Part shown: positions 8,378-11,254 of the stretch, piece after piece
How the letters are laid out: each line of letters opens with the position of its first letter
How positions within the stretch are numbered: position 1 is the first letter of the stretch
Virus record (IMG/VR): IMGVR_UViG_3300030010_000014
Span: 1 to 29,441 of that record
Reading direction: 5' to 3' (one strand)
Source of the DNA: a virus
Taxonomy: Duplodnaviria; Caudoviricetes
Length of the DNA: 29,441 bases
Position numbers and translations under genes: made by a program
The notes under the pieces: model-generated
Told to the model about the DNA's origin: nothing
Databases searched by the model: none
Seen by the model: only the letters and a program-made list of their open reading frames with translations

Positions 8378-9541
8378 ATGGCGCATGTTGAGGACCGATG
8401 GACCACGCCGAGCCCCGCCGGGAACGGACGCACCCGCACCGACCGCTACGGCGTGGGCAAGCGGTGGCTGGCGACGTGGGCCGAAGCCGACGGCGTCCGC
8501 CGGCGCAAGGCCTTCACCACGAAGAACGCCGCTCTTGCATGGCTCGAAGACGTCGGTGTTCAGCAGCGGACCGGCACCTACATCTCCCCGGCGGCCAGCT
8601 CGACCACGGTCCGCGCGGTGGCGGAACGCTGGTACCTCGAGCAGGTGCACCAGCGGGCGACGTCACTGCGGCAAGTCCGGGGCCGGCTCGACCGGTACAT
8701 CCTGCCGACGCTCGGCGATGTGCCCTGGTCGGCGATGACCCGGGGCCGCGTGCAGGCCGCTGTCACGGTGTGGGCGGGCAAGCTCGCGCCGTCGACCGTG
8801 CGCGTGACCTACGTCTACCTGGCGGGGATCTGCACTCTGGCTGTCGAGGAGCGGCGCATCCACACCAGCCCGTGCCGGCGGATCAACCTGCCGCCGGTGG
8901 AAGCCGGGCCGATCGTCCCGCTCAGCGTGTCGACCGTGCAGAAGGTCGTGGACGGGGCTGACCCGCGCTACCGGCCGCTGTTCATCCTCGCGGCGGCGTC
9001 GGGCCTGCGGATCGGCGAGCTCGTCGGGCTCACCTGGGACCGGGTCGTCGATGGCGAAGACGGCACCGCGGCGCTGCGCGTCGACCGGCAGCTGCTGCGT
9101 TCAGGGTCGGCCACGGCGCCGAAGTGGGGGCCGCCCAAGACCCCCGGGAGCGTGCGGACGGTGCCCATCGGCAAGACCACCCGCGCCGTGTTGGGTGACC
9201 GTGGCGAGGGCCTGGTGTTCACCACCCGCCGCGGCGGGGCCATGATGCCGAAGGTCACGTGGCAGGTCTGGCACGCTGCGGCGGACCCGGCCGGGATACC
9301 CGCGGGAGAGGCGTGGCATGCGCTGCGGCACTTCCACGCGTCGCTCCTCATCGCCGGCGGCGCCTCCCCGGTCGCTGTGGCGCATCGCCTCGGCCACCGG
9401 AATCCGGCGGAGACGCTGCAGACCTACGCCCACCTGTGGCCCGACGACGATGAGCGCATGCGTGACACGGCGGACGGCGTCGTGCTCCTACCCAGGTCTG
9501 AGGACGATCTCGCAGCCTCCGCAGAGCCACCGGCGGCGTAG
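8378..9541 (+). CDS. int: Tyrosine integrase
   Basis: Catalytic set GLRIGE (R), KTPG (K), HALRH (HxxR), LGH, TYAH (Y); N-terminal arm-binding region. Confidence 0.96.
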   Translation: MAHVEDRWTTPSPAGNGRTRTDRYGVGKRWLATWAEADGVRRRKAFTTKNAALAWLEDVGVQQRTGTYISPAASSTTVRAVAERWYLEQVHQRATSLRQVRGRLDRYILPTLGDVPWSAMTRGRVQAAVTVWAGKLAPSTVRVTYVYLAGICTLAVEERRIHTSPCRRINLPPVEAGPIVPLSVSTVQKVVDGADPRYRPLFILAAASGLRIGELVGLTWDRVVDGEDGTAALRVDRQLLRSGSATAPKWGPPKTPGSVRTVPIGKTTRAVLGDRGEGLVFTTRRGGAMMPKVTWQVWHAAADPAGIPAGEAWHALRHFHASLLIAGGASPVAVAHRLGHRNPAETLQTYAHLWPDDDERMRDTADGVVLLPRSEDDLAASAEPPAA

Positions 9542-9543
9542 AG

Positions 9544-9687
9544 GCGCAGGTCAGAGGCCGTTCGCGCAGAACCCGGCGTATCGACTGACTCATCCGCACC
9601 ATAGGGGCCCGGACCTGCACATTCACCGCCGCGCGCGCCGGGTGATGGGGGCTGGTCGAACATCTGTCCGTAGCCGCTGACCTGGGC
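9544..9687. repeat. Inverted repeat pair flanking candidate attP
   Basis: GCGCAGGTCAGAGGC (9544-9558) and GCCGCTGACCTGGGC (9673-9687), 13/15 complementary, immediately after int. Confidence 0.5.
9656..9671. promoter_or_regulatory. Candidate LexA (SOS) box
   Basis: TCGAAC-ATCT-GTCCGT versus actinobacterial consensus TCGAAC-N4-GTTCGA; upstream of ORF 9730. Confidence 0.45.
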
Positions 9688-9729
9688 TTTCTGTCTCTTG
9701 CTGTGTCTTCTAGCCTCCGTGGAGCCACC

Positions 9730-9978
9730 ATGATGAGCGCCCCCGACAGGCCCGCCGAGCAGGTTCTCTCCGCTGCGGCGGCGATGGACCGGGCCCGCGC
9801 CGAGGGCCTGCCGGACGAACTGCTGGCGACGATGCTCGCAGCACGGGACGCCTGGTGGGAGCAGGGCCCCTGGCCGGACCGGATGGACCTGGCGGCGGTG
9901 CTGGCGCATCCGGCGTCGCGGATGGTCGACGAGGTGCTGTGGCGGGCCATCCGCCGGCGGGTCGCACCCCGTCCGTAG
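9730..9978 (+). CDS. Hypothetical protein (82 aa)
   Basis: RBS GGAG at 9721, candidate -10 TAGCCT at 9711; helical protein with high-GC codon use. Confidence 0.65.
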   Translation: MMSAPDRPAEQVLSAAAAMDRARAEGLPDELLATMLAARDAWWEQGPWPDRMDLAAVLAHPASRMVDEVLWRAIRRRVAPRP

Positions 9979-9992
9979 AGTCGGGTCAGCGA

Positions 9993-10071
9993 GGGGCTGG
10001 ACGGTTTCGACGGTCACCGACAACCGCATGCGGACGTGGGCCGGACTCGGGTTCGACTCCCGGCAGCTCCA
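9993..10071 (+). ncRNA. Mini-tmRNA: tRNA-like domain only, no tag reading frame
   Basis: GGGGCTG/CAGCTCC acceptor stem with G3.U70 and A discriminator; unpaired tmRNA-type D-loop GACGGTTTCGAC; helix CGGTCAC/GTGGGCCG; GAC linker; T-arm TCGGG-TTCGACT-CCCGG; -10 TAGAGT at 9976-9981. Confidence 0.85.
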
Positions 10072-10072
10072 C

Positions 10073-11254
10073 TCACTCGGTGATGAGCCGCAGCCCGTCC
10101 CAACGGCCCTGGTCGTCGACCGTGAACGTCAGTAGGCCGGCCTCCACGTCGGCGCCGCCTTGTCCGTTCGCCCACCAGGCTGAGCCGTTGTCCAGGGTGG
10201 GGGCCTGCATCCACCATCGGGCCTTGCCGTCGATCGCTCCGGACGGCTGCACGCGCAGATGATGGAAGTGCCCGGAGACGAGGATGCTGGCGGCGGCGAG
10301 GGGCCCACCGCCGTGCGTCTGCTTGGCCCACCAGTCGGGCAGCCGGTCCGGGGTGTTGGCCTGGTGGCCGTGCGCCATGCCCACGACCGCGCCGCGGACC
10401 TGCAGGGCCAGAGACTCCACCCACGGGTCCGGGATGACGAACGTCACGTCATCACGGCCGGCCATGCGCATGGCGCGGGCGACGGTCTTGTGGGTGAGGA
10501 TCCCGAAGTCGTCGCCCGGGCGCCCCAATCGGTCCTTCCCGCGTCGCCAGGCACCGTGGTTCGACGGCACCGTGGCCACACGGGTCCAGGTGTGCTTGGC
10601 CGCGACCATGGAGACGATCTCGGTGAGGACGACCTGTGCGAGGTCCAGCTGATCCGGCAGGGACAAGTCGTCGGTGTGCAGCTGGCTCCCGGTGTTCTCG
10701 AAGCCCTCCGTCAGATCGCCCGGGTCAAGCACCAGCGCGTCCTCGCACCGCTCCTGCCGCATCACGACCTCGAGCCCAGCCAGCAGCTGCTCGACGCGGG
10801 CGAGGAACGCCGGAGTCCCGCCCCGATGGTCGACCTTCCCGACCTGCGCATCCGACACCACGACCACCCGGGTCCTGCTGGCCGTGGCCTTGGTGGGGCG
10901 CCGGCGGTTGCCGCGCACGACCCGGACGAGGCCAGGCAGGTCACCGTCAGCCCGGACGGACTCACGGTCACGGATGCCGAACCGCACGTACACCAGCGGC
11001 TGCTCAGGGTTGCCCCAGTAGCGGACCTGCTGGATCTCCACCCGCCGCGCCTCGGGGATGTCCAGGGTGGTGACGCGCTTGATCTCGGCCCGCCACGCGG
11101 CCTCATCCTCGGGGATCTCCGTGACCTGCACGGTGACCTCGACGGGCTCACCAGCCTCATACCGCACCCCCGGCTCGAAGCCCGAGGGGGCGGAGCGGAT
11201 CGGGCTGATGTGGGGTGCGACCTGCGCGGCCCGGACGTCGTCAGCGAGTCCCAC
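10073..11254 (-). CDS. Calcineurin-like metallophosphoesterase
   Basis: Motifs SDAQ (DxH variant), GDLTE, SNHG, AHGH, GHFH. Confidence 0.88.
   Translation of the reverse strand: MGLADDVRAAQVAPHISPIRSAPSGFEPGVRYEAGEPVEVTVQVTEIPEDEAAWRAEIKRVTTLDIPEARRVEIQQVRYWGNPEQPLVYVRFGIRDRESVRADGDLPGLVRVVRGNRRRPTKATASRTRVVVVSDAQVGKVDHRGGTPAFLARVEQLLAGLEVVMRQERCEDALVLDPGDLTEGFENTGSQLHTDDLSLPDQLDLAQVVLTEIVSMVAAKHTWTRVATVPSNHGAWRRGKDRLGRPGDDFGILTHKTVARAMRMAGRDDVTFVIPDPWVESLALQVRGAVVGMAHGHQANTPDRLPDWWAKQTHGGGPLAAASILVSGHFHHLRVQPSGAIDGKARWWMQAPTLDNGSAWWANGQGGADVEAGLLTFTVDDQGRWDGLRLITE

Follow-up and report, generated by a model that had tools for sequence, protein, structure and literature searches.

A 79-nucleotide phage mini-tmRNA: its anatomy, its relatives and its possible roles

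The locus described here raises the question of why a phage would carry the two ends of a transfer-messenger RNA (tmRNA) with nearly everything between them gone, and whether such a stretch is a gene at all. It lies in a window of 29,441 nucleotides, the whole stretch of DNA that was analysed, from the IMG/VR virus record IMGVR_UViG_3300030010_000014. An earlier note, made from the sequence alone, had proposed that the phage has a gene whose product keeps the alanyl tRNA-like domain (TLD) intact and is without the mRNA domain, and which could titrate the protein SmpB, and had left the novelty of this to be checked. Parts of a complete virus record (G001, 58,389 bp) match the window with 100% identity, and the phage is temperate and tailed, with a tyrosine integrase, repressor-type genes, RecE/RecT and lysis, tail, capsid, terminase and WhiB genes. 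Its host is likely an actinobacterium of the Litorihabitans/Cellulomonas/Georgenia group, because the closest named relatives of the integrase come from these. ARAGORN finds no tRNA or tmRNA in the remainder of the phage. As a separate observation, the terminase large subunit ORF (L261:430-2895, G001) contains a LAGLIDADG or homing-endonuclease-like stretch, which is probably an intein.

Anatomy of the window RNA

Direct reading and cmscan agree that both tmRNA ends are joined within 79 nt. The Rfam tmRNA model RF00023 matches the two ends with 59.3 bits (gathering 47, E 5e-21), values that speak against a chance match, and about 303 of its positions are swapped for 17-18 nt in the window copy. 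This is the single Rfam match that cmscan gives across the whole window. The 5' and 3' ends strongly resemble those of two actinobacterial ssrA genes, and all the parts that the earlier note had listed, namely the acceptor stem with G3.U70 and A73, the unpaired D-loop, helix 2a, the GAC linker and the T-arm, can be read directly (Table 1). Recognition by alanyl-tRNA synthetase (AlaRS) is set by G3.U70 and the discriminator A, while SmpB binds the elbow (PMC3968760). Residues A15, U17, C18, G19 and A334 of the E. coli RNA lie at the SmpB interface (PMC8363625); the counterparts of U17, C18, G19 and A334 are present in the window copy and that of A15 is a U, as it is in two actinobacterial ssrA genes.

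Table 1. Features around the mini-tmRNA and the basis on which each was assigned
Feature	Coordinates	Strand	Basis and remarks
Tyrosine integrase	8378..9541	+	closest named relatives 58-61%: Litorihabitans, Cellulomonas, Georgenia
attP core, identical to the final 30 nt of host rnpB (RNase P RNA gene)	9567..9596	+	shared motif, blastn, contig breaks
81-aa ORF, no assigned function, 14 nt upstream of mini-tmRNA	9733..9978	+	no PHROG or Pfam match
Candidate -10 hexamer TAGAGT	9976..9981	+	its TAG also serves the upstream ORF as stop codon
Mini-tmRNA, tRNA-like domain only, G1 to discriminator A73	9993..10071	+	sequence read, cmscan; family model R1 86.5 bits, with the window sequence in the R1 training set
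Acceptor stem, 5' strand, pairing with 10064-10070; G3.U70 is 9995.10068	9993..9999	+	sequence read; relatives
Stemless D-loop; counterparts of E. coli U17, C18, G19 at 10007-10009	10000..10010	+	sequence read; SmpB contacts per PMC8363625
Helix 2a (10011-10017 with 10036-10043) enclosing A-rich joint and inner hairpin	10011..10043	+	sequence read, cmscan, covariation
Inner hairpin, 3 bp, 4-nt CAUG loop	10024..10033	+	kept across family; DS6A loop is CACG
GAC linker 10044-10046 (A10045 is the E. coli A334 counterpart) and T-arm 10047-10063	10044..10063	+	sequence read, cmscan, covariation
Convergent gene, phrog_284 'exonuclease', metallophosphoesterase-like motifs	10073..11254	-	profile match

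Helix 2a of the window copy has five contiguous pairs, one bulge and then two more pairs, and the region from 10011 to 10043 takes the place of the pseudoknots, the tag ORF and what else helix 2 contains in a full tmRNA. The 18-nt insert (10018-10035) that had been proposed as this replacement is there, but the palindrome described within it is a 3-bp hairpin with a 4-nt loop, and the loops of most relatives are non-palindromic. A dimerisation or operator site was considered for this palindrome and rejected because the hairpin loops vary among relatives. CCA is unencoded, as had been noted: after the discriminator A at 10071 the next three nucleotides (10072-10074) are CTC, and the stop codon of the phrog_284 gene (10073-10075) overlaps the place where CCA would stand. 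A host enzyme would add the CCA.

Other assignments fit less well. The RNA lacks the D-stem and anticodon arm of a tRNA-Ala (RF00005), and cmscan assigns it to tmRNA; ARAGORN makes no call for it. It is not a two-piece permuted tmRNA either, as the order here is 5' part then 3' part and not the 3' acceptor part first. No further tmRNA-type match was found in the window with cmscan, nor with model R1 in L260 and in L261, the latter from G001. An mRNA-like domain with resume codon, tag and stop codon is absent. Judged by its sequence, the mini-tmRNA resembles tmRNA's tRNA-like domain but fails as a functional tmRNA for want of a tag frame. The window RNA on its own folds no better than its own shuffles (z -0.3 to -0.4) and its minimum-energy fold misses the T-arm, so the structure needed comparative proof; the proposed structure thus rests on covariation.

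Relatives, selection and the attachment site

Relatives were collected with two pattern searches, which pooled give 105 distinct sequences, nearly all of them viral. The first pattern fixed only the D-loop end, the linker and the T-arm; run over 48 of the 64 parts of IMG/VR it gave 119 loci, from which a total of about 160 was estimated. Together with the window and the cultured phage Shaeky this makes 121 matches examined, of which 110 with a 7-bp acceptor stem were kept and 11 dropped; the 110 comprise 72 distinct sequences, the window's included. G1-C72, G2-C71, G3.U70 and A73, which this pattern did not specify, occur in all 72, and acceptor pairs 4-6 covary among them. CCA is encoded in 16 of the 72, the window copy being outside those 16. 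The 71 distinct sequences with sufficient flank fall into 55 clusters at 90%.

The pairing itself appears to be maintained. Helix 2a positions 1-6 are 89.6% paired versus 43% when shuffled (maximum 51%). In an alignment of 28 members, hand-selected for near-equal length, 98.5% of cells pair versus 79.4% in shuffles that ignore relatedness and 41-53% in slid controls, and both-side changes are seen in 12 of 19 pairs. The inner hairpin has 92.9% of its cells paired and both-side changes in all three of its pairs. The insert of the family is usually an A-rich joint followed by a 3-bp hairpin with a 4-nt loop, and the loops among the 72 sequences include CACG (15), CAUG (12) and several of GNRA type. 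There are also longer variants of 89-95 nt (L023:2484-2581, L034:2484-2581, L083:2485-2578 and L114:288-379), in which one extended stem replaces joint and hairpin.

The earlier note would have given up its reading had homologues kept only an att-like 3' segment while the 5' half decayed. The second pattern bears on this, as it fixed only the inner hairpin, linker and T-arm, all in the 3' half. It returned 96 loci with 59 distinct sequences, and 58 of these have the full acceptor stem with G3.U70 and A73, so the 5' half does not decay. The D-loop TCGAC, also unspecified, is present in 54 of 58 relatives, and 33 of the sequences were new, which brings the total to 105. The proposed collection of homologues has thus been made, their stems covary, and the claim of a phage gene for an intact alanyl TLD without its mRNA domain is borne out by the invariant G3.U70 and A73 and by the covariation. 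From this comparative record we conclude that the mini-tmRNA is a real gene, selected along its entire length.

The same family could in principle be one of bacterial chromosomes. A search of GTDB gave 120 loci from 57 of 64 parts, but the 7-bp acceptor stem is present in only 10 of the 118 parsed matches, and a chromosomal bacterial family was rejected on this count. The other 108 read as ordinary ssrA 3' ends, and for two of them alone, L137 and L167, was this reading checked with cmscan. Most of the family is thus found in viruses. Four of the five mini-bearing bacterial genomes tested keep a full ssrA, so the mini copy supplements rather than replaces it. Several bacterial loci are worth recording individually. 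L138 may be another mini form. In Streptomyces sp. NPDC056835 (L199:2654-4609, on a 323-kb contig) a mini-tmRNA lies within an array of 16 tRNA matches, with a full ssrA elsewhere in the genome. In a Saccharibacteria bin of 0.5 Mb the sole tmRNA match above the cut-off is a 73-nt mini form near tRNA genes (L251, G007:C12:3324-3396), and this could mean that the bin is incomplete, that the contig is from a phage or that the cell itself has a tag-less tmRNA. In an Achromobacter bin (L190:3823-3902) there is a tmRNA of 80 nt whose ends are host-like and which is without the inner hairpin; it looks like an internal deletion or misassembly of ssrA and not like a family member.

Only 450 nt separate the window copy from the gene of the tyrosine integrase, and integration into ssrA is common (PMC11915505), so one might take this copy for an integration scar or a decaying piece of host ssrA with no RNA function. 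The attachment site was located separately. A motif beginning at 9567 is common to Arthrobacter phage TripleJ and three related contigs, where it stands directly after their integrases, and TripleJ has the same first 17 nt of the attP core. A blastn search with 9552-9612 against 401 genomes gave weak matches, of which three of the best eight loci are rnpB 3' ends; where the Rfam model stops in the alignment examined, the letters agree with the end of 9567-9596. In two of four DNA runs contigs break exactly at 9567 and 9596, with a foreign 64-nt hairpin-like piece joining before 9567, and in the other two contigs cross the region unbroken. The breaks show 30-nt identity with a host locus, which would be seen equally at a prophage junction and at an empty host site. 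Within the mini-tmRNA there is no contig branch of this sort, and it is touched only by a 93%-alike tmRNA end from another organism. Arm-like repeats flank the core (9493-9515, 9547-9569 and 9673-9687, and also 9514-9531 and 9712-9729).

One result counts against rnpB as the target. Among 11 bacterial loci with 39-43% identical integrases, eight are without rnpB within about 1.5 kb, and in the three that do lie beside it the integrase faces rnpB from downstream, opposite to the arrangement in the window. Separately, a 26-nt degenerate att pattern was found in 0 of the 401 genomes, for which the blastn search was the informative one, and we found no description of rnpB integration in the literature searched. 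If integration takes place as inferred, the prophage would carry its mini-tmRNA on the strand of rnpB, about 400 nt downstream of it.

The mini-tmRNA is independent of the attachment site. It was rejected as an attP fragment of ssrA, since its 5' half is intact and the core at 9567-9596 copies rnpB. The idea of a scar meets further difficulties in the 58 of 59 3'-anchored sequences with an intact 5' half, in the both-side changes at 12 of 19 pairs, in the presence of a recombinase near only 2 of 42 loci scanned and in the copy of Mycobacterium phage DS6A, which is about 10 kb from the integrase. We regard that idea as largely refuted already and as very improbable.

The genes next to the window copy show how its place varies. 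Homologues of the 81-aa ORF adjoin the integrase in the contigs L283 and L285, and no mini-tmRNA was found in either. L283 shares with the window the integrase, the att site, the small ORF and the phrog_284 gene, and because it carries different genes in between with no R1 match, the slot next to attP is variable. A PDB search with the phrog_284 gene gave nothing useful. Genes of this group are near the mini-tmRNA in the window and at L074:2758-3924 and L079:1108-2346; they are 28-36% identical and their orientations differ.

Carriers, expression and proposed function

The promoter proposed in the earlier note is a candidate at most. The hexamer TAGAGT is where it was said to be, but the upstream ORF uses its TAG as stop codon, the distance to G1 is 11 nt as against 5-8 nt in relatives that have a TANNNT box, and a scan of 9500-10300 for sigma-70 promoters and terminators gave nothing. 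TANNNT is rare in the window (0.0003 per position). Among 71 relatives, 21 have a TANNNT box 5-8 nt before G1 (shuffled mean 4.0, maximum 12 in 1000 shuffles), several of these loci being related; at 9-13 nt, the range of the window box, there are 6 versus 5.0 expected from shuffling, which is no excess. The box is at exactly 6 nt in 14 relatives, boxes 5-8 nt before G1 are found in L004, L012, L025, L111 and others, and the related ones among these loci lie between head protease and major capsid genes. The boxes in these 21 relatives suggest that transcription may start at or beside G1. Four metatranscriptomes gave only scattered contigs of depth 2-8, none over the 5' half of the RNA; these reveal neither its ends nor its level and speak neither for nor against expression. 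High-depth 31-mers at 10043-10072 have 3 mismatches and are the tmRNA ends of other organisms.

From 42 of the 48 distinct-sequence loci having flanks, 116 neighbouring ORFs were scanned, and no common neighbour gene stands out. Neighbours are head protease or capsid genes at six loci, where the copies lie between the head protease and major capsid genes, and a DnaB-like helicase at seven, where they stand before the helicase gene; lysis-type enzymes occur at four, and terminase or portal, phrog_284 and recombinase genes at two each. Five cultured phages, pSt2308, Shaeky, GiJojo, LuckySocke and Starbow, have unannotated copies within their tRNA arrays, and the mini-tmRNA is annotated in none of the GenBank phage records examined. 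GiJojo gene 44 (L288:2499-2741), annotated as a 'hypothetical protein' across the mini-tmRNA, may be a miscall.

SmpB was found in 0 of 50 carriers tested and not in the complete 58-kb window phage, so the SmpB partner must be the host's. A full tmRNA accompanies the mini form in two of the 50 carriers, and no match to a full-length one was found in the other 48, many of which are fragments (23 of the 44 IMG/VR carrier records are at least 90% complete). The two are the Streptomyces phage Starbow, with the mini form at 85900-85980 (L287:2901-2981) and the full tmRNA at 97120-97400 (L287:14121-14401), and G413, with the two at 46486-46567 and 77588-77979. In 71 phage records there are matches that cover at least 80% of the Starbow-type mini gene, and many of the named phages with it also have an annotated tmRNA. 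In the five copies of this type that were read, all from Stanwilliamsviridae, G3.U70 and the hairpin are kept, the D-loop is altered and the linker is changed in all five; the G19 counterpart is lost in three (EGole, Jay2Jay and NootNoot).

Given these observations, the reading that we favour, at about even odds, is that the mini-tmRNA is charged with alanine and competes with host tmRNA for SmpB and stalled ribosomes. The RNA would be transcribed from its own start or together with the upstream ORF, host enzymes would trim its ends and add CCA, and AlaRS would charge it, whereupon SmpB and EF-Tu of the host could bind. The charged RNA would then divert SmpB from host tmRNA and, on entering non-stop ribosomes, would add alanine and no tag; tagging would fall and the phage may profit from less of it. 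Such competition is supported by the published inhibition, the conserved SmpB elbow and the lack of a phage SmpB. Expressed in E. coli, the DS6A form is reported to inhibit the cell's own tmRNA (PMC11915505), and a molecule similar to the DS6A RNA strongly inhibits tmRNA, perhaps by titrating SmpB, with alanine charging not needed (PMC4131195). SmpB titration is thus already a published hypothesis for DS6A, the same as the idea in the earlier note, and according to the review literature a TLD fragment suffices for SmpB binding and for ribosome entry with EF-Tu. However, pure titration does not explain the invariant alanine identity, as the reported inhibition needed no charging; because this identity is invariant, the charged form should matter beyond simple titration. 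It would also be awkward for a phage to block trans-translation while carrying a tmRNA, as in Starbow and G413. Two other points are against competition: lambda-immP22 needs charged tmRNA and rescue by host trans-translation (PMC2862035), and the G19 counterpart is lost in three of five Starbow-type copies. The inner hairpin is left unexplained.

The invariance of G3.U70 and A73 also supports the thought that the RNA helps rescue without tagging, in that the charged RNA and host SmpB take over the stalled peptide, eject the broken mRNA and add one or more alanines, after which a host factor frees the ribosome, with a net gain in recycling during heavy phage translation. In vitro a TLD fragment and SmpB make polyalanine without mRNA (PMC3929946), and tag-less tmRNAs are described as persisting together with SmpB in mitochondria and some plastids. 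The positions near head protease and capsid genes (6 of 42), before helicase genes (7 of 42) and in tRNA arrays would suit such help, as would the co-existence of the mini form with a full phage tmRNA. But without a stop codon release needs another factor, and Pth and Pth2 were each found in 0 of 51 carriers, so no release helper of those two families accompanies the mini-tmRNA. Moreover, the effect reported in E. coli is inhibition. We take this rescue role to be possible but doubtful.

That the window copy occupies a variable slot beside attP, with other genes there in L283, would also be in keeping with a decoy for host defences that sense or cut tRNA or tmRNA, absorbing nucleases or sensor domains that resemble SmpB. 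A prediction gives such SmpB-like domains to the CoCoNuT defence systems (PMC11090510), and an anti-CRISPR co-purifies with tRNA and tmRNA fragments (PMC11662646). The CoCoNuT link is itself a prediction, though, and a decoy has no obvious need for strict alanine identity, which makes a decoy unlikely in our estimate. Finally, the RNA could carry alanine to, or be a ligand of, some other partner than SmpB, one that recognises the A-rich joint and inner hairpin. The hairpin is conserved family-wide, and the five Stanwilliamsviridae copies that were read, divergent in D-loop and linker, retain it together with G3.U70; yet the SmpB-type D-loop is kept in 54 of 58 relatives and no neighbour gene is shared among the 42 loci, and we think such a partner quite improbable.

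Returning to an RNA that works through SmpB, there is a bolder reading, which we take to be possible but doubtful. This could be a widespread and mobile phage RNA that shifts host rescue from 'tag and destroy' to template-free alanine addition, with a conserved hairpin of its own, and that some phages pair with a full tmRNA, tuning the fate of stalled proteins.

Comparison with known systems

The kind of RNA found in the window proved not to be new. DS6A is listed as having a 'TLD only' tmRNA (PMC4131195), for which both PMC4131195 and PMC11915505 cite Mao et al. 2009, and the window copy is an ordinary member of a kind already published. What goes beyond it is how broad the family is, its conserved inner hairpin, the strictness of its alanine identity and the existence of cultured phages that carry both forms. 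In the literature searched this was the curiosity of one phage, and it is now a conserved family of at least 105 distinct sequences, common in phages yet missed by ARAGORN and unannotated in the GenBank phage records examined. We found no survey of the family in that literature, and subscription journals, supplements and tmRNA databases may list more members. Since cultured Streptomyces phages with laboratory hosts (Starbow, LuckySocke and GiJojo) carry the mini form, two questions become directly testable: whether phages inhibit or repurpose trans-translation, and how a tag-less tmRNA acts on the ribosome in vivo, which bears on the tag-less tmRNAs of organelles.

The DS6A gene was located at JN698994.1 28478-28560 (tmRNA Website tmID 11587), and its RNA scores 59.5 bits with model R1, which was built without DS6A. 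It is about 67% alike to the window RNA and shares its length class, G3.U70, A73, unencoded CCA, short helix 2a, and A-rich joint with 3-bp hairpin. Its D-loop and linker show small departures, whereas the D-loop and GAC linker of the window copy are canonical, and it stands after gene 33 while the window copy lies between attP and the late-gene end. With the standard one-piece tmRNA (RF00023, 59.3 bits) both ends are alike, but about 303 model positions have no counterpart in the window RNA: helix 2 beyond 2a, every pseudoknot, the resume codon and the tag ORF. Because these are absent it cannot template a tag or terminate. A conceivable origin is a deletion between motifs repeated in helix 2 of a full tmRNA.

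The tag-less tmRNAs of organelles, mitochondrial or from the plastid genes of about 65 nt in Mallomonadaceae, likewise consist of the tRNA-like domain without a tag frame (PMC11915505). Those of mitochondria are reported to co-occur with a dedicated nucleus-encoded SmpB, whereas the phage form goes with an intact host ssrA and with no SmpB in the carriers tested. Full-length phage tmRNAs, such as those of the mycobacteriophages Bxz1 and Wildcat and Starbow gene 190, are phage-borne and use host SmpB, as would the mini form. Unlike the mini form they keep the tag ORF, and Starbow has both, about 11 kb apart.
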